A stretch of DNA of 64,000 nucleotides from Clostridiales bacterium DTU032 (GCA_001512745.1 LFSM01000060.1:4493-68492); one strand, 5' to 3'. Shown: positions 55,622 to 64,000, counted from the first letter of the stretch. Made by a program: numbers and translations. Notes: generated from the sequence alone by a model not told the origin.

Positions 55622-57616
55622 CTAGAAGAATGGCGCAAACACCATTGCCACTATGGTCATCAACTTAATAAGGATATTGATTGAAGGTCCCGAAGTATCT
55701 TTGAAAGGATCGCCAACAGTATCACCGACAACAGCAGCACGATGTGCTTCACTTCCGGGACCGCCTTCATGACCTTCCTCAATATATTTCTTAGCATTGT
55801 CCCAGGCACCGCCTGAGTTGGATAAGGTAATCGCGAGGACTACGCCGGTTACGAGAGCTCCGGCCAGCATGCCGCCTAAAGCAACCGGACCTAAAGTCAA
55901 ACCTATAAGGACCGGGCCTAAAACCGACAGCAAGCCCGGCAGAATCATTTCGCGGAGGGAAGCATTGGTGCTGATCTCAATACAGCGGTTATAATCAGGC
56001 AGTTCTGTTCCTGCAATGATACCCGGCTCATTTCTAAACTGCCGCCTGACTTCTTCTATCATCTGGAAGGCAGCTTTGCCCACCGAGTTCATAGTTAAGG
56101 AAGAGAAAAGGAAGGGAAAGGCACCACCGATAAACAAACCAATGATAGCATGCGGATCCAGTAAATCTATAACTGCCAGATTGGATACCTGTGCATAAGA
56201 GACAAACAGGGAGAGAGCTGTCAGAGCCGCTGAGCCGATGGCAAATCCTTTGCCGATGGCAGCTGTTGTGTTACCGACACTATCCAGCTTGTCAGTAATT
56301 TCACGGACTTCATGCGGCAGGTCAGCCATCTGTGCGATACCGCCGGCATTGTCGGCGATGGGGCCATAAGCATCAACGGAAATAGTCATACCTACTGTGG
56401 ACAGCATGCCGACTGCTGCCAGAGCAACTCCGTAAAGGCCAACTGACCTGAAGGAGGCGAAGGTGGCTGCAGCGATGAGCAGAATCGGGACAAAGGATGA
56501 GCCCATACCAAGGGCGAAACCGTCAATTATGTTAGTAGCAGCTCCAGTTCGGCAGGCCTTAGCCAGATTTTTCACCGGTTTGTAATCAGCAGAAGTAAAA
56601 TACTCAGTTGTAGTGCCGATAAGAACACCGGTAATCAGGCCGGATGTAACGGCGATAAAGTGCTGGTAGGTACCAAAGAGCCAATAGCTGAGTCCCAGGG
56701 CCGCCAGCATGGTTAACAAGCTGCTGACATAAGTACCGGTATTAAGAATTTTTGCAGGATTTTTCATTTTAATCCTGGTCACAACAATAATACCAATAAG
56801 TGAAAAAAGAGCTCCGGCTCCACTTAGCAGGAGCGGATATGATACGGCTGCTATCCGATTGCCGACCAGCTCAGCAGGCAGTGTAACAGCAAGAGTGATT
56901 GCTGATACGATAGCTCCGACATAAGACTCGAAGAGGTCACTGCCCATACCGGCGACATCGCCGACATTATCACCAACGTTATCGGCAATAACTGCAGGGT
57001 TACGCGGATCATCTTCAGGGATTCCTGCTTCCAGTTTGCCGACCAGGTCAGCGCCGACGTCAGCAGCTTTGGTATAGATGCCGCCGCCTACGCGTCCAAA
57101 TAAGGCCATGGAGGAAGCGCCCAGGCTGAAACCGGTAAGAGCTTCAAGCAAGCCATTGCCGCTGCCCAACTGAATAATTGCGCTGATACCGAGCAAACCC
57201 AGACCGACAACACTAAGTCCCATGACTGTTCCGCCGCTGAAAGCAACCCTCAAAGCTGAACCGATGTCTTTTGTCTTTGCCGCTTCAGCAGTACGGACGT
57301 TAGCCAAAGTTGCAGTGCGCATGCCGAAAAAACCGGCCAGAACAGAGAAAAGGCCTCCGACAACAAAGGCGATAGCGGTAGGCCAGCCCAGAAGGGCCAG
57401 CAACACAAGAAACATGACCACAACAAAGATGGTAATAAACCTATATTCCCGTGAGAGGAAAACCATAGCCCCTTCTCGTATGTATGAGGCTATTTCCTTC
57501 ATCCTGTTGTTGCCTTCAGGCTTGAGTTTTACTGTACGGTAAATAAAAAATGCTGCGATCAAGGTAATTAGCGCAGTGACGGGTAAGATAATTCTGGAAA
57601 ATATCTCGTAGTTCAA
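55622..57616 (-). CDS. hppA: Membrane-integral pyrophosphate-energised cation pump, K+-dependent subclass
   Basis: The motifs [38 protein letters not shown] and [10 protein letters not shown] are present, the last with Ala at the K+-dependence position. The TTG start follows GGAGGA. Confidence 0.9.
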
Positions 57617-57996
57617 CTTCTTTCCTCCACATAGTCAGAAATTTTATAAAAACAATACGTTTAAGCGGTCAGCCCCCTCTTCATAAACGCATTGTTAATC
57701 CAAATATTATGAGCTGAAAGTCCTCCCGGTATTTTGTATTAATCAGTCAAAATAAAAAAAATAATATTCCCTTTCCTGGCGGGCAAGACAGGGTCCTTAT
57801 TTTTTCTTCGAAGTGTATTCACAGCCATTGAGCATTATTCTGAGACGGCTCTGCAGCTTTCTGACTCCGTCTCGATTTATACTAAGTAGTATATTGTATA
57901 AGAAGTTAAAAGGCAAAAATACATAGCTAATATTATGAATATGTATGAATGTTTGCAGGGAAATTTAGGCGAATAGTCAAGAGAAATACTATTTTC

Positions 57997-58011
57997 ATTC
58001 ATTCAATGAAT
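57997..58011. promoter_or_regulatory. Perfect 7-1-7 palindrome ATTCATTcAATGAAT (candidate operator)
   Basis: It was read directly. It lies ~85 nt upstream of the 58096 start and just upstream of an extended -10 element TGcTAATAT (58042-58050). Confidence 0.3.
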
Positions 58012-58095
58012 ATGAGTTTTTGGGCAAAATTACCAAAGCTATGCTAATATTTAACTGATTTCTTTCTAATATCAATACTATCTGGAGGGGACACC

Positions 58096-58410
58096 ATGGA
58101 CAGTAACAGAATATTGGAGCATCCGATACTGGAATTTACTGAGGGCGAAGATCTGCCCTTTAGTTTTGACGGCAGGCAACTTGTGGGCAAGTCCGGTGAT
58201 ACTATAGCTTCAGCTTTGCACGCTGCCGGAGTGCGAGTACTGGGCCATCATTTCAAGACCGGCCGGCCGCGTGGCTTTTATTGTGCCATCGGTAACTGCT
58301 CGTCATGTCTGATGATTGTCAACGGTGTGCCTAACGTACGTGTTTGTGTCGAGCCCTTGCAGGCAGGCATGGTCGTATGTTCCCAGAATGACAGGGGGGT
58401 CTTGCCATGA
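58096..58410 (+). CDS. Small [2Fe-2S] subunit (HcnA / sarcosine oxidase alpha N-terminal-like)
   Basis: The Cys pattern C-x4-C-x2-C-x12-C occurs in FYCAIGNCSSCLMIVNGVPNVRVC. The protein is 104 aa. Confidence 0.8.
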   Translation: MDSNRILEHPILEFTEGEDLPFSFDGRQLVGKSGDTIASALHAAGVRVLGHHFKTGRPRGFYCAIGNCSSCLMIVNGVPNVRVCVEPLQAGMVVCSQNDRGVLP

Positions 58411-59492
58411 TTTCTCTGCCGCTCTTAATAGTGGGAGCCGGTCCGGCAGGATTATGTGCTGCATACAGGGCAGCAGAGGCCGGAGTTGATGTGCTGATTC
58501 TCGAACGAGCGCAGAAAGCTGGCGGCCAGCTGGTGAAGCAAACACACAAATTTTTCGGATCTGAGAAGCAATTCGCATCTACTCGCGGCATCGAAATTGC
58601 GAAAATTTTGACTAATCGGCTGCAGGGGCTGCCGGGACGTGTCCGGCTGCAAACAGATGCGACAGTCCTTGGCTTTTATGAGGATGGTGTAGTTACCGCT
58701 CAGGTCCAGGGCCAGTTTATGAAATATCGTCCGGACTGCTGCATAGTGGCAACAGGAGCTTCAGAGAAAACTCTGGCTTTTGCCGGAAATGATCTGCCAG
58801 GTGTCTATGGTGCCGGTGCTGTGCAGACCCTGATGAACGAATACGGAGTACGTCCCGGAAATCGAGTTCTGATGATAGGTGCAGGCAATATTGGCCTGAT
58901 CGTTTCATATCAGTTGTTGCAGGCCGGCGTGAAGCTGGCAGCAGTTTTGGATGCAGCCGACGAAATTGGCGGTTATCTGGTTCACGCCAGTAAAATCCGC
59001 CGGGCCGGTGTCCCAATTTTAACGCGGCATACAGTTGAAAGAGCTTATGGCAATGAAAAAGTAGAACACGCTATTATTCATGCTTTAGATGATGAGTGGA
59101 AGAAAATACCGGGGAGTGAACAGCAGCTGGATGTGGATGTTATCTGTATTGCAGTCGGCCTTTCACCTCTGGCTGACCTGCTGTGGCAGGCTGAAGTAAA
59201 AATGAAATATATTGCTGCTTTGGGCGGTTATGTGCCCCTGCGTGACGCCGATATGATGACTTCAGCAAAAGGTCTTTATATCGCAGGTGATGTTGCCGGC
59301 ATAGAAGAGGCCAGTTCAGCCATGGTTGAGGGCGAAATTGCCGGTATTGCCGCAACGCAGCGTTTAGGCTTTTCCACTGAAAAGAGTGAGCTTTTGAAAA
59401 AGGATTGTCTGCAACAACTGCGTCAGCTGCGGGCAGGTCCCGGCAGTGAAAAGATCAGGACGGGTATGGCCCTGGCCGGAGGCTATGTGTAA
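58407..59492 (+). CDS. FAD/NAD(P)-binding pyridine nucleotide-disulfide oxidoreductase-family subunit (HcnB / archaeal PDH alpha-like)
   Basis: Two dinucleotide-binding motifs, VGAGPAGLCAA and IGAGNIGLIVS, are present. The start overlaps the previous stop (ATGA). Confidence 0.8.
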   Translation: MISLPLLIVGAGPAGLCAAYRAAEAGVDVLILERAQKAGGQLVKQTHKFFGSEKQFASTRGIEIAKILTNRLQGLPGRVRLQTDATVLGFYEDGVVTAQVQGQFMKYRPDCCIVATGASEKTLAFAGNDLPGVYGAGAVQTLMNEYGVRPGNRVLMIGAGNIGLIVSYQLLQAGVKLAAVLDAADEIGGYLVHASKIRRAGVPILTRHTVERAYGNEKVEHAIIHALDDEWKKIPGSEQQLDVDVICIAVGLSPLADLLWQAEVKMKYIAALGGYVPLRDADMMTSAKGLYIAGDVAGIEEASSAMVEGEIAGIAATQRLGFSTEKSELLKKDCLQQLRQLRAGPGSEKIRTGMALAGGYV

Positions 59493-60322
59493 TGAAGACT
59501 AAATTATCACTGCTAAAAAGAGAAGGTCTGGCTACAGCGGACGATCTGAGGGGACGCCTGCCGGGGGAAGATGACAAGAAGAGAGGACCCTACGCGGTTA
59601 TTGAGTGTTTCGAAGAAATACCCTGCAATCCCTGTGTTGTTTCTTGCCGTTTCAATGCTATTTTGCCATTTAAAGATATAAACGATCTCCCCTATGTGGA
59701 CTTTTCTGCCTGCACAGGTTGCGCTGTCTGCGCCCGGGTCTGTCCGGGCCTGGCCATCTTTATTGTTGATGAATCCATGGATGGAGATATGGGCACGATC
59801 ACGCTGCCATATGAGTATTTGCCTTTGCCTGAAAAAGGCTGGCAGGTGCTGGCGAGAGCCCGCGACGGAAGTGCACTCTTCCCGGCCACAGTAGTGCGGG
59901 TAATGAAAGGTGGCAAGGGTAAAACAGCCCTGGTCAGTCTGGAAGTTCCGAAAGAGTATTTGCAGGAAGTACGGTCTTTTACAGTTCCGGAGGAGGAAGA
60001 TTCCGTTCCCTGCAGCTGTGCAGAGTTGGACTTGGCGGAAGAATCTCCTACGGTTTGCCGTTGTGAAGGTGTGGACCTGCAGGAGATCCGCGATTTGATC
60101 GCCCGCGGCTATAAAACTGTGGACGAGATCAAGCACAGAAGCCGGGCCGGCATGGGACCCTGTCAGGGACGCAGCTGCCGGCAGATAATCCTATCTGAAC
60201 TTGCGCGGGATGCGGGAGTTTCACTGGAAGAATTTGAAGCGGGTAGTTTTCGACCGCCAACAACACCGGTTTCAATGGATGTTTTAGCGAAAGGTAGCGA
60301 AGAAGATGCAGAAAACAGCTGA
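59492..60322 (+). CDS. Iron-sulfur subunit: 4Fe-4S ferredoxin motif plus a C-terminal BFD-like [2Fe-2S] domain
   Basis: The motifs CTGCAVCARVCP, CNPCVVSC and CRCEGV...GPCQGRSC are present. The start overlaps the previous stop (TAATG). Confidence 0.75.
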   Translation: MKTKLSLLKREGLATADDLRGRLPGEDDKKRGPYAVIECFEEIPCNPCVVSCRFNAILPFKDINDLPYVDFSACTGCAVCARVCPGLAIFIVDESMDGDMGTITLPYEYLPLPEKGWQVLARARDGSALFPATVVRVMKGGKGKTALVSLEVPKEYLQEVRSFTVPEEEDSVPCSCAELDLAEESPTVCRCEGVDLQEIRDLIARGYKTVDEIKHRSRAGMGPCQGRSCRQIILSELARDAGVSLEEFEAGSFRPPTTPVSMDVLAKGSEEDAENS

Positions 60323-61457
60323 TGTTGCCATCATAGGCGGCGGAATCTCAGGGCTTTCCATTGCTTTCCAGCTTGCTCAGGCGGGTGTGGGCAATATCGC
60401 AATCATCGAGAAAAACTTCCTTGGCAGTGGTGCGACCGGTCGTTGTGGTGCAGGTATCCGCATGCAGTGGGGGACTGAGCTCAACTGCCTTTTATCAAAA
60501 TATTCCTGTGAATTCTATGAACAGGCACATGAGATTTTTCATAATGATATAGATATAGAATTTGAACAGGGCGGCTATCTGATTGGAGCCGGAACAGATG
60601 AAGAGCTGGAGCAGTTTAAGCAGAATATTAAGCTTCAGAATAAGCTGGGTATTGAATCTGTCTTCCTCAGCCCGGAAGAAGCAGGCGAGATCGTGCCTCA
60701 TCTTGACATCAGGCAGATAAAAGGGGCAACTTTCTGCCACAGGGATGGGCATCTGAATCCATTCCGTACGGTAGAGGCCTATGCCGAAGCTGCTAAAAGT
60801 CTGGGTGTCTCGATTTATGAATACACTGAAGTCAGGGATATTCTTCGTGACGGCAATAAACTGAAGGGTGTGCGGACAGATAAGGGAGATATCAATGCGC
60901 CGGTAGTGGTCAATGCAGCGGGTGGCTATTCCGGTTTGATTGCCGATATGGCATCTGTAGATCTGCCGGTATATTCACAACGCCACCAGATCATGGCTAC
61001 TGAGCCGGTTGAGCCCATGCAGGAACCGATGTTCATGGGCTTTTCACTGAATATTTATATTCAACAAGTACCCCATGGCTCATTCATCATGGGCAGAAGC
61101 GATGACAGCGAGCCGACTGATTTGCGTTTGACTTCGTCCTGGCATTTTCTGGAAGAGATGAGCAGAACTTGTACAAGACTTATGCCACGCCTGGGTCAGT
61201 TAAAAATTGTCCGCCAGTGGGCAGGCCTCTACAATATGACGGCGGACGCACAGCCAATTTATGATGAGGCGCCGGAATTACCCAGTTTTTACCATGCAGC
61301 GGGTTTCTCGGGTCACGGCTTTATGCTGGCTCCGGTTACCGGACACGTAATAGCGAAAAGAATTCTGGGAGAGAAGCCGGATATAGATGTAAGCAGTCTG
61401 AATGTCAGCCGCTTCAAAGAGGGCGGACTCCTGCCGACAGAAAGCTCGGTTGTCTGA
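60306..61457 (+). CDS. FAD-dependent amino-acid dehydrogenase/oxidase subunit (DAO family; sarcosine oxidase beta / HcnC / PDH beta-like)
   Basis: The N-terminal motif VAIIGGGISGLS is present. The protein is ~383 aa and the gene overlaps its upstream neighbour by 17 nt. Confidence 0.8.
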   Translation: MQKTADVAIIGGGISGLSIAFQLAQAGVGNIAIIEKNFLGSGATGRCGAGIRMQWGTELNCLLSKYSCEFYEQAHEIFHNDIDIEFEQGGYLIGAGTDEELEQFKQNIKLQNKLGIESVFLSPEEAGEIVPHLDIRQIKGATFCHRDGHLNPFRTVEAYAEAAKSLGVSIYEYTEVRDILRDGNKLKGVRTDKGDINAPVVVNAAGGYSGLIADMASVDLPVYSQRHQIMATEPVEPMQEPMFMGFSLNIYIQQVPHGSFIMGRSDDSEPTDLRLTSSWHFLEEMSRTCTRLMPRLGQLKIVRQWAGLYNMTADAQPIYDEAPELPSFYHAAGFSGHGFMLAPVTGHVIAKRILGEKPDIDVSSLNVSRFKEGGLLPTESSVV

Positions 61458-61480
61458 GCATTCCGGAGAGTAAATTTTTG

Positions 61481-61519
61481 AAAAAAAGGCCGCTGACTGT
61501 AGTGATCAGCGGCCTTTTT
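61481..61519. terminator. Bidirectional terminator
   Basis: An A7 tract, the hairpin GGCCGCTGA-ctgtagtga-TCAGCGGCC and a T5 tract are present. Confidence 0.8.
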
Positions 61520-61542
61520 AATAAATAGAATTAGCTGTCTGT

Positions 61543-63171
61543 TTAGATTTCCTGCATGAAGGGATAGCTGATCTCTGCTGAAGGCAACAGGTTTTCTTTG
61601 ATTGTGCGTGGGCTGACCCAACGCAGCAGATTTAACACACTACCGGCTTTATCATTGGTGCCGGAGGCTCTGGACCCGCCAAAGGGCTGTTGTCCCACGA
61701 CTGCTCCGGTGGGTTTATCATTTATGTAAAAATTGCCGGCGGAATGAAGCAGGGCTTTTTCCATTTCGACCAGGGCTGCTCTGTCCTGAGCGAAAATAGC
61801 ACCGGTCAGCGCATAGGGTGAAGTTTTGTCGCACAGGGACAGGGTTTCTTCCAGTTTTTCATCCTCATAGACATAAATAGTTAAAACCGGCCCGAAGAGC
61901 TCTTCCTGCATGGTTACATAATCCGGTTTTTTGGCCAAAATCACGCTAGGGGAGATAAAATAACCAACACTGTCGTCGTAGCTGCCGGTCAGAAGTTCAG
62001 CGTCATCCGAGACTCTCGCATTATCAATTGCTGTTGTGATTTTTGTAAAGGCTTTGCGGTCAATTACAGCTGAGAGGAAATTTGAGAAATCCCTGACATC
62101 ACCCATCTTTAGTTCCTTGATCTTTTGCATAAGTTTATCTTTAAGATCGGGCCAGATACTTTTTGGTATATAGGCGCGGGAAGCGGCTGAGCATTTCTGG
62201 CCCTGGTATTCAAAAGCGCCTCTTACCAGTGCCGCCAGCAAACTGTCGCTATCAGCGGTAGGATGCGCGAAGATATAATCTTTGCCACCGGTTTCTCCGA
62301 CCAGACGCGGGTACTGATTGTAGTTGCCGATGTTTTCACCGACAAGTTTGAAAACACTCTGAAATACTGCTGTTGAACCGGTGAAGTGGAAACCGGCCAG
62401 ATTGGGATCTTTGAGTATATACTCTTCAACATCTTTACCGCGGGAAGGCAGAAAAGAGATAACTCCCGGTGGCAAACCTGCTTCCAGAAGAATCCGGTAG
62501 ACATAATAATTTGACAGGCTTGCAGTACGTGCAGGTTTCCAGATCACCGTATTGCCCATCAAAGCGGGGGCTATAGCCAGATTCCCGCCGATAGAGGTGA
62601 AATTAAAAGGAGATATCGCCATGACAAAGCCGTCCAGAGGCCGATATTCCTGGCGGTTCCATACTCCGGGAATGCTCATGGGCTGCTGTTTGTATATCTC
62701 TTCAGCACAGGAAACGCCATAACGAAGGAAATCACAGAGCTCACAGGCAGCGTCGATTTCTGCCTGCATTACGGTTTTGCTCTGGCCCAGCATGGTGGCT
62801 GCATTTACGCGGTCGCGCCAGGGGCCGGCCAGCAGGTCTGCTGCTTTAAGAAAAATTGCAGCCCTGTGCTCGAAAGGCATCGCTGCCCAAGCGGCCTTAC
62901 TCTCCATGGCCGTTTGGATCGCTTCTTTCATTTCGGCCTGGCCTGCCAGATGTGCAGTAGCCAGGACATGTTGATGCTGATGTGGCATCACAATGGTATC
63001 CGTATCAGCGGTGAAGATTTCCTTTCCGCCAATAACTAGCGGAATGTCTATAGTCATCTTGCTCTGGCGATCCAGTTCAAGCTTAAGAGTTTCTCTGGCT
63101 TTGCTGCCAGGTTCATAGCTTAGAATTTTTTCATTACGGGCTTCCGGCACTTTAAAAATGGCATTGTTCAT
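61543..63171 (-). CDS. pruA: L-glutamate gamma-semialdehyde (1-pyrroline-5-carboxylate) dehydrogenase, long ALDH4-like form
   Basis: ALDH motifs ETGGKD and EYQGQKCSA (catalytic Cys) and the P5CDH-typical GAVVGQQPFGGSRASGTNDKAG are present. Confidence 0.85.
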   Translation of the reverse strand: MNNAIFKVPEARNEKILSYEPGSKARETLKLELDRQSKMTIDIPLVIGGKEIFTADTDTIVMPHQHQHVLATAHLAGQAEMKEAIQTAMESKAAWAAMPFEHRAAIFLKAADLLAGPWRDRVNAATMLGQSKTVMQAEIDAACELCDFLRYGVSCAEEIYKQQPMSIPGVWNRQEYRPLDGFVMAISPFNFTSIGGNLAIAPALMGNTVIWKPARTASLSNYYVYRILLEAGLPPGVISFLPSRGKDVEEYILKDPNLAGFHFTGSTAVFQSVFKLVGENIGNYNQYPRLVGETGGKDYIFAHPTADSDSLLAALVRGAFEYQGQKCSAASRAYIPKSIWPDLKDKLMQKIKELKMGDVRDFSNFLSAVIDRKAFTKITTAIDNARVSDDAELLTGSYDDSVGYFISPSVILAKKPDYVTMQEELFGPVLTIYVYEDEKLEETLSLCDKTSPYALTGAIFAQDRAALVEMEKALLHSAGNFYINDKPTGAVVGQQPFGGSRASGTNDKAGSVLNLLRWVSPRTIKENLLPSAEISYPFMQEI

Positions 63172-63294
63172 GTTTCCCTCCCTGCGGCTTGAATAATTGG
63201 CGAAAAACTGTAGCCGTCTAGCTATAATGCTAACATAACAAGTGAGTTTTCAGCTCCAGTCCCTTATCAGCGGTGATTAGATTGAGGTTAGCAA

Positions 63295-63936
63295 ATGAAG
63301 CATGAAAAAGAGAGTAATTCTGATGGTAAAGGTCTTGTTTATTTCATCCGCCATGGACTAACCCAGGCTAATCTGGAGCGAAAGTATATTGGTAGCCGCT
63401 GCGACCCCGGCATAACAGAAGACAGCAAACAATTAATTACAGAAAGAGTCCGCAAAGGAGAGGTTCCCGACATAAACAGCCTCTGGGTTTCTCCCATGCG
63501 CAGGGCTCTTGAGACTGCAAGTTTATACTTTCCCCACATAGATGCTCTTATTTTAGATGATATAAAGGAACGAGATTTCGGCATCTGGGACGGACATAGC
63601 TGGGAAGATCTCAAGGACATCAAACCATATCGTCGTTTTATAGATACTGGGGGACGGGTCACACCACCTGAAGGGGAGACATATGAAGACTATGCGAAAC
63701 GACTTGACTCTGTCCTGGAGCGGATAAGAAAATTGATCTGTGAAGAAGCCGGCTATTTTCCTCTGGCGATTGTCGGTCATGGAGGTCCTGTTCTTTACTG
63801 GACCAGTAAATTATTCAAAAAAGGTGATGAATTTCATAATTATATTCTTCCCGGTGCAGGATGCCTTGCGATCGAAGTAACTGCTGACCTTGTAATTACT
63901 TCTGTATATGATTTTTATTCTAAAAGCAGAGATTGA
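63295..63936 (+). CDS. Histidine phosphatase family protein (PGM/CobC-like)
   Basis: The RHG motif YFIRHGLTQAN and the distal His in VGHGG are present. Confidence 0.8.
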   Translation: MKHEKESNSDGKGLVYFIRHGLTQANLERKYIGSRCDPGITEDSKQLITERVRKGEVPDINSLWVSPMRRALETASLYFPHIDALILDDIKERDFGIWDGHSWEDLKDIKPYRRFIDTGGRVTPPEGETYEDYAKRLDSVLERIRKLICEEAGYFPLAIVGHGGPVLYWTSKLFKKGDEFHNYILPGAGCLAIEVTADLVITSVYDFYSKSRD

Positions 63937-64000
63937 TTATTTGTCCCGGTCAGGTTACGGGACCTGGCCTTGGCGTAACGTTTTTGGAGGCGACGAAAGA

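Follow-up and report, generated by a model that had tools for sequence, protein, structure and literature searches.

Four overlapping genes in a 64,000-nucleotide (nt) stretch of DNA from Clostridiales bacterium DTU032 (GCA_001512745.1 LFSM01000060.1:4493-68492; the window, with positions counted from its first letter) probably encode a bacterial version of the PDH2-type L-proline dehydrogenase (PDH) of Thermococcales. Together with the product of a convergent gene just downstream, the complex would convert proline to 1-pyrroline-5-carboxylate (P5C) and P5C to glutamate. The assignment of the operon, as a bacterial representative, to an enzyme family known from archaea is solidly supported.

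We took open reading frames (ORFs) from a six-frame list over the window and checked the junctions by direct reading of the DNA; the list returned all five genes at the coordinates given by the initial annotation. The four operon genes lie on the + strand. Gene 1 (58096..58410) encodes a [2Fe-2S] protein of 104 amino acids (aa) with a Fer2_4 domain (PF13510, E 2.7e-29) and corresponds to the N-terminal domain of the PDH2 alpha subunit, split off as a separate chain. Gene 2 (58407..59492, 361 aa) encodes a flavoprotein with two dinucleotide folds, of the type that binds flavin adenine dinucleotide (FAD) and NAD(H) (Pyr_redox_2, PF07992), and corresponds to the body of PDH2 alpha. The product of gene 3 (59492..60322, 276 aa) carries Fer4 followed by Fer2_BFD and SO_alpha_A3, as in a fusion of PDH2 gamma and delta, and gene 4 (60306..61457, 383 aa) encodes a DAO-family FAD subunit (PF01266, E 6e-79) that corresponds to the catalytic PDH beta subunit. 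Pfam thus agrees with the earlier calls of a [2Fe-2S] protein, a two-Rossmann flavoprotein, a 4Fe-4S plus BFD protein and a DAO protein. The overlaps of 4, 1 and 17 nt claimed for the junctions were also seen (ATGA, TAATG and a 17-nt overlap, respectively), and a purine-rich, Shine-Dalgarno-like stretch precedes every start.

What connects the operon to the archaeal enzyme is the match of every subunit. PDH1 and PDH2 of Thermococcales are both L-proline dehydrogenases and the closest characterised enzymes (PMC4364671). We compared the window proteins by BLASTP with the PDH1 and PDH2 sets of Thermococcus guaymasensis and with annotated OoxB/OoxA, an opine dehydrogenase-like trio, SoxB/SoxA and ThiO. 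The T. guaymasensis locus consists of a PDH1 alpha-beta pair followed by the four PDH2 genes, which encode alpha (478 aa, Fer2_4 and Pyr_redox_2), gamma (168 aa, two 4Fe-4S motifs), delta (96 aa, BFD and SO_alpha_A3) and beta (385 aa, DAO), and it fits the description of the pdhA/F/X/B cluster of the Thermococcales L-proline dehydrogenase (PMC4364671). Of its two betas, the first is orthologous to 1Y56_B (763 bits) and the second paralogous (548 bits). Gene 1 matched residues 2-101 of PDH2 alpha (48% identity) and gene 2 residues 119-470 (50% identity, 338 bits), so that the two jointly cover residues 2-470 of the 478-residue chain; gene 2 scored at most 77 bits against PDH1 alpha (25% identity), SoxA, OoxA and the opine dehydrogenase-like alpha. 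Residues 8-168 of gene 3 matched PDH2 gamma (42% identity), which was the sole match of this part among the reference proteins, and residues 184-274 matched PDH2 delta (47%). Gene 4 was 42% identical to PDH2 beta and 39% to PDH1 beta. Its best solved structure was 1Y56_B (278 bits), compared to ∼160 bits for SoxB chains and 107-120 bits for glycine oxidases; 1Y56 was deposited as 'sarcosine oxidase', and its chain B is the Pyrococcus horikoshii PDH1 beta subunit. Because BLASTP maps every subunit in order, the operon is colinear with PDH2 but has alpha divided between two chains and gamma joined to delta. The suggestion of an archaeal alpha-beta-gamma-delta type complex is therefore borne out, as all four proteins match Thermococcus PDH2 subunits best and in the same gene order. 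From the homology of the subunits to single-chain and solved relatives, we infer that the four proteins form a complex.

Are the cofactor sites of such a complex preserved? Related loci were collected by a pattern scan (7-sequence alignment) with one genome per species, which yielded 80 loci with a beta identity of at least 56%. This set covers Clostridia and allied anaerobes, i.e. close bacterial relatives only, the nearest being Mageeibacillus and Fastidiosipila metagenome-assembled genomes (MAGs); the T. guaymasensis locus was found separately, via a representative homologue. Conservation was followed over about 80 species loci together with the Thermococcus locus and a Cloacibacillus locus. 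The cysteine motif proposed for gene 1 is present as C63-x4-C68-x2-C71-x12-C84, and none of the four cysteines varies in the homologous loci (79/79). In gene 2, GxGxxG motifs at residues 10 and 158 are invariant across loci, and position 182, after the second Rossmann strand, is Asp or Glu in 72/81 loci; an acidic residue at this place would favour NAD(H) over NADP(H) as the nucleotide. The gamma part of gene 3 (residues ∼8-168) has two [4Fe-4S] motifs (C-x5-C-x2-C-x3-C and C-x2-C-x2-C-x3-CP), the eight ferredoxin-type cysteines of which are invariant in 81/81 loci. Its delta part (residues ∼184-274) has the BFD-type pattern C-x-C...C-x4-C, with four invariant or nearly invariant cysteines (80-82 loci), and Cys174 and Cys176 in the gamma-delta linker showed no conservation across ∼80 loci. 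In one relative, the gamma-delta homologue (G012:C24:36802-37620) contains an in-frame TAA, which could reflect either a pseudogene or an error of assembly. Two loci depart from the usual gene order: the Fer2_4 gene follows the DAO gene at L037, and at L047 the DAO gene comes first, followed by the Fer2_4, Pyr_redox_2 and Fe-S genes.

The second line of evidence comes from the gene next to the operon. At 61543..63171 on the - strand lies a gene for a 542-aa Aldedh protein, a P5C (L-glutamate gamma-semialdehyde) dehydrogenase of the ALDH4A1 type. As previously noted, this is a long-form enzyme encoded convergently downstream; it scored as the TIGR01236 equivalog (779 bits against a cut-off of 613.6), and among solved structures it reached 622 bits with the Mycobacterium tuberculosis P5C dehydrogenase 4IDM and ∼566-569 bits with mouse and human ALDH4A1. 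We then considered the window's genome (1.61 Mb, 88% complete) together with 40 relatives (n = 41). The TIGR01236 P5C dehydrogenase was present in 13/13 genomes with a full-length gamma-delta gene and in 0/28 genomes that lacked one, and in all 13 the two genes were on the same contig, a few kb apart. These 13 genomes fall in four genera and therefore do not represent 13 independent events. Among the 80 species loci, 17 have a P5C dehydrogenase adjoining the operon (58-90% identity to the window's copy), in three arrangements: upstream on the same strand (11 loci), downstream on the same strand (2) and downstream convergent (4, the window's own lineage). The link between the P5C dehydrogenase and the complex holds in both data sets. 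The initial annotation had seen no PutA/PRODH-type enzyme nearby, and this extends further: Pro_dh (PF01619) was not found in the operon proteins or in any of the 41 genomes, including the 88% complete genome of the window.

Neighbourhoods in the relatives, counted in the 80 loci by tblastn with reference neighbour proteins, point in the same direction. In 28/80 loci, a ferredoxin gene, a gene for an aldehyde:ferredoxin oxidoreductase (AFOR, ∼720 aa) and a ThiS/MoaD-like gene lie directly downstream of the operon. The ferredoxin of this group is ∼128 aa long with two [4Fe-4S] motifs (e.g. L001:9498-12233, also L004, L005 and 25 further loci). The AFOR is a candidate tungsten-type glutamate-semialdehyde:ferredoxin oxidoreductase, and such an alternative partner fits an aldehyde product. 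The P5C dehydrogenase and the AFOR were never both found at one operon (0/80 loci), and no AFOR was found in the window's genome. Furthermore, an M24-family peptidase whose N-terminal domain is of the Creatinase/Prolidase type is encoded downstream in 20/80 loci, commonly accompanied by an oligopeptide permease and by peptidases of the M19 and M20 families. A Sedimentibacter-type locus (L034:8271-13939) runs from the operon through an M24 peptidase, an M19 dipeptidase, a signal peptidase and an M20 peptidase to an oligopeptide permease; its layout resembles a module for supplying proline from peptides. Genes for sigma-54 activators and for symporters of the SSF or SNF families also often adjoin the operon in relatives, and at one locus a class-III aminotransferase gene precedes the P5C dehydrogenase gene. 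The aldehyde-oxidising partner (P5C dehydrogenase or AFOR) and the proline-releasing peptidases together fit a complex that acts on proline and makes P5C/glutamate semialdehyde. Cloacibacillus porcorum (L088:1-1193) has, ∼4.5 kb upstream of its operon and on the other strand, genes for a 786-aa glycyl-radical enzyme and for the activase of this enzyme, which could be of the hydroxyproline dehydratase type and feed P5C.

Does the catalytic subunit itself group with the archaeal enzymes? A careful tree of 47 beta sequences places the window's beta in a group of Clostridia with good support, and a larger tree made by a quick method gives the same picture. The Clostridia group lies within a weakly supported bacterial assemblage of Synergistota, Negativicutes, Caldisericota/Coprothermobacterota and Brevibacillus. 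PDH1 beta and PDH2 beta of Thermococcus pair as sisters within a separate group that also contains a Methanofastidiosia sequence (a MAG label) and three SoxB sequences on a long stem; OoxB and the opine dehydrogenase-like beta fall outside both groups. Thus, in trees drawn without HcnC and LhpB, no non-proline clade takes the window's beta, a placement that the initial annotation had proposed as a check. Its caution that substrate specificity cannot be read from the sequence holds in part, as the beta tree has no deep resolution and by itself would give no proof of a specificity common to the bacterial and archaeal clades. The assignment to proline rests on the four-subunit colinearity and on the genomic context. 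The aerobic Brevibacillus spp. (cluster P0169) carry a beta homologue with 35% identity inside the bacterial assemblage, and the family is therefore not restricted to strict anaerobes.

In the complex that we propose, L-proline would give hydride to the FAD of the DAO-type beta subunit (gene 4), and P5C would be released. Electrons would then pass from the beta FAD over the [2Fe-2S] cluster of delta, the [4Fe-4S] pair of gamma and the [2Fe-2S] cluster of gene 1 to the FAD of gene 2, where a pyridine nucleotide would bind and from where electrons would go on to a soluble acceptor. P5C would open to glutamate semialdehyde, which the convergent NAD-dependent P5C dehydrogenase (61543-63171) would oxidize to glutamate. 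The operon and the P5C dehydrogenase would in this way stand in for PutA/PRODH in a quinone-less, amino-acid-fermenting anaerobe. The organism is such a fermenter and probably lacks quinones, since its genome encodes glutamate dehydrogenase, ProC, Rnf and a GrdE/GrdG-like component B subunit of a glycine/sarcosine-type reductase (contig C78:3162-4442, - strand, 618 bits to NF040793, which is below the cut-off), and neither a proline racemase nor a UbiA-family prenyltransferase was found in it. As the GrdE/GrdG-like subunit and Rnf are present and no proline racemase was found, glycine-type Stickland reduction could serve as the sink for proline-derived electrons.

Several observations weigh against this assignment to proline. 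The bacterial beta clade is apart from the Thermococcales PDH beta, the backbone of the tree has no resolution, and SoxB is closer to the archaeal sequences; since SoxB nests closer to the archaeal group, substrate shifts have occurred within the beta family. Within the window, no proline transporter or regulator adjoins the operon, and the P5C dehydrogenase, being convergent, is not co-transcribed with it. The substrate of the second enzyme leaves some room as well: ALDH4A1-type enzymes also oxidise 4-hydroxyglutamate semialdehyde, which keeps hydroxyproline in play. Finally, the midpoint potential of the proline/P5C couple is about -0.12 V, and the direct reduction of NAD+ by proline would therefore be uphill. 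One way around this barrier is suggested by analogy with lactate dehydrogenase-EtfAB: the complex might be a flavin-based electron-confurcating proline dehydrogenase, an idea that we put forward tentatively and consider rather doubtful. Reduced ferredoxin would enter via the two-[4Fe-4S] gamma module and proline via the beta FAD, and the two would jointly reduce NAD+ on the gene-2 flavoprotein. The alpha subunit of the T. profundus type reportedly has NADH dehydrogenase activity (Kawakami and colleagues). Confurcation, if true, would explain how quinone-less anaerobes oxidize proline, and also why a ferredoxin and a ferredoxin-reducing aldehyde oxidoreductase are encoded right behind the operon in many relatives.

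Could the same complex have a different main substrate, such as trans-4-hydroxy-L-proline, L-pipecolate, D-proline or sarcosine? We consider this unlikely. In the hydroxyproline version, the complex would make 3-hydroxy-P5C, which the same ALDH4A1-type enzyme would turn into 4-hydroxyglutamate. A different substrate is favoured by the known acceptance by ALDH4A1-type enzymes of the hydroxylated semialdehyde, by the nesting of SoxB within a beta family in which specificity has shifted, by peptidase-rich contexts that would free hydroxyproline from collagen-like peptides too, and by the glycyl-radical enzyme near the Cloacibacillus operon. However, the characterised enzymes nearest to the complex, PDH1 and PDH2 of Thermococcales, are L-proline dehydrogenases (PMC4364671), and each of the other candidates meets an obstacle of its own. 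A sarcosine oxidase would need the folate-binding half of SoxA, SoxD and SoxG, none of which is in the operon; a D-proline route is made less likely by the proline racemase, which was looked for in the window's genome and not found; and a pipecolate route needs a dehydrogenase of 1-piperideine-6-carboxylate (P6C) of the ALDH7 type, whereas the actual partner is the TIGR01236 equivalog. Of the alternatives left standing by the initial annotation, glycine-to-hydrogen cyanide (HCN) conversion and sarcosine oxidation are made unlikely by the context, and hydroxyproline stays as a less likely substrate.

A reading in the opposite direction, as an NADH-dependent P5C reductase that bifurcates electrons to ferredoxin, makes proline and conserves energy, strikes us as very improbable. 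An NAD(H) site, at least two flavins and a ferredoxin-like subunit are indeed combined in the complex, the P5C/proline couple has a high potential like the acceptors of known bifurcating reductases, and AFOR is able to run in the acid-reducing direction. Nevertheless, the partner P5C dehydrogenase consumes P5C in an effectively irreversible reaction, the genes for uptake and for Xaa-Pro peptidase-like proteins point to a supply of proline rather than its synthesis, and a normal ProC is encoded elsewhere in the window's genome. Harder still to credit is an identification of the complex as HCN synthase (a glycine dehydrogenase of the HcnABC type), opine oxidase or sarcosine oxidase. The domain set (Fer2_4, Pyr_redox_2 with BFD, DAO) and the order A-B-C are in common, but gene 2 scored 61-77 bits against OoxA, SoxA and the opine dehydrogenase-like alpha versus 338 bits against PDH2, and gene 4 scored 95-155 bits against OoxB, SoxB and the opine dehydrogenase-like beta versus 273 bits against PDH2. 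The two-[4Fe-4S] gamma module matched PDH2 gamma alone among the compared references, and the P5C dehydrogenase strictly co-occurs as a neighbour; the gamma module and this context argue against membership in the HcnABC group.

We also inspected the control region. A candidate extended -10 element (TGcTAATAT, 58042..58050, + strand) is the inferred promoter element of the operon, and the pattern TGnTAnAAT is present in 5/5 aligned upstream regions of close relatives. Farther upstream, blocks at ∼57880-57960, e.g. AGTATATTGTA and ATATTATGA, are invariant in all five aligned sequences. A perfect palindrome at 57997-58011 (ATTCATTcAATGAAT) showed no conservation in four close relatives, and the blocks are better operator candidates. 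No sigma-54 -24/-12 element was found in 57617-58095 when up to 2 mismatches were allowed. An Rfam scan of 57400-64000 gave no match near any gathering score and hence no riboswitch or T-box in that region. Within the operon, scans for terminator and promoter consensus sequences gave counts similar to those in shuffled sequence. The 85-nt gap between gene 4 and the P5C dehydrogenase gene was said to hold a shared bidirectional terminator, and both the gap and the terminator were recovered: an intrinsic terminator at 61483..61519, a GC-rich hairpin between an A-run and a T-run, folds at -33.1 kcal/mol (z = -5.6), and 0/200 shuffles fold as well.

To our knowledge, strict anaerobes have neither PutA/PRODH nor quinones, and their oxidation of proline is poorly understood; in the textbook view, proline serves them mainly as a Stickland electron acceptor. 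The operon has many relatives, spread over Clostridia, Synergistota, Negativicutes and further phyla, and together they point to a widespread, overlooked route from proline to glutamate, which is predicted to employ a kind of enzyme studied only in Thermococcales. In databases, the homologues are named 'sarcosine oxidase subunit beta' or 'FAD-binding oxidoreductase', and metabolic reconstructions of digester and gut communities therefore miss this route to proline oxidation. A search of one literature collection turned up no relevant paper on a bacterial enzyme of the PDH2 type, on confurcation by a proline dehydrogenase or on AFOR activity towards glutamate semialdehyde. The electron acceptor and the partnership with a tungsten-type aldehyde oxidoreductase could each reveal new energy-coupling chemistry.

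Finally, we compared the operon with known systems. It has the same four modules as PDH2 (PdhA/PdhF/PdhX/PdhB of T. profundus; P. horikoshii), in the common order alpha-gamma-delta-beta, with the Fe-S ligands and both dinucleotide motifs kept; even the start-stop overlap of delta and beta is common to the archaeal and window operons. While PDH2 alpha is one chain, the window's alpha consists of the 104-aa [2Fe-2S] protein and the 361-aa flavoprotein, and while gamma and delta are separate in PDH2, they form one 276-aa protein in the window; in many other bacteria the two are separate, which gives a five-gene operon. The hosts of PDH2 are hyperthermophilic archaea whereas the window's host is a mesophilic Clostridia bacterium, the Thermococcus locus has no flanking P5C dehydrogenase whereas the window's operon is genomically tied to one, and the window's beta belongs to a separate bacterial clade. 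With P. horikoshii PDH1 (alpha4beta4, 1Y56), the operon shares the motif GFSGHGFM (1Y56_B and gene 4), and the C-terminus of 1Y56_A aligns with the delta-like end of gene 3. However, PDH1 alpha is a single, ATP-binding chain without a gamma partner, whereas the window's operon has a gamma module. Membership in the PDH1 type was rejected on this presence of gamma and on the lower identity of gene 2 to PDH1 alpha (25%) than to PDH2 alpha (50%).

The remaining systems are more distant. In the sarcosine oxidase SoxABDG, the N-terminal 600 residues of SoxA align with genes 1-3 and SoxB aligns with gene 4 (27% identity). TIGR01372 was matched at positions 15-101, 171-491 and 523-597 of 996, far below the cut-off; the window's operon has no further ORFs for SoxD or SoxG, compared to the soxBDAG locus of Ralstonia, and sarcosine oxidase lacks Fe-S clusters that are present in the window's complex. 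With the folate-binding SoxA half, SoxD and SoxG missing, membership in this family was rejected as well. HcnABC, OoxAB/flavin opine dehydrogenase and LhpBEF follow the same three-module logic of a small [2Fe-2S] protein, a Pyr_redox_2/BFD protein and a DAO protein (PMC4575208). Gene 4 is 27% identical to OoxB and 32% to the opine dehydrogenase-like beta, none of the opine-type loci examined has a two-[4Fe-4S] gamma module, and these enzymes belong to contexts of opine or aerobic catabolism; the direct comparisons covered the opine-type enzymes but not HcnC or LhpB. Compared to PutA/PRODH with P5C dehydrogenase, the first enzyme is unrelated in fold to the Pro_dh TIM barrel and is not quinone-linked, while the predicted route from proline via P5C to glutamate is the same and its second step has a genuine P5C dehydrogenase.

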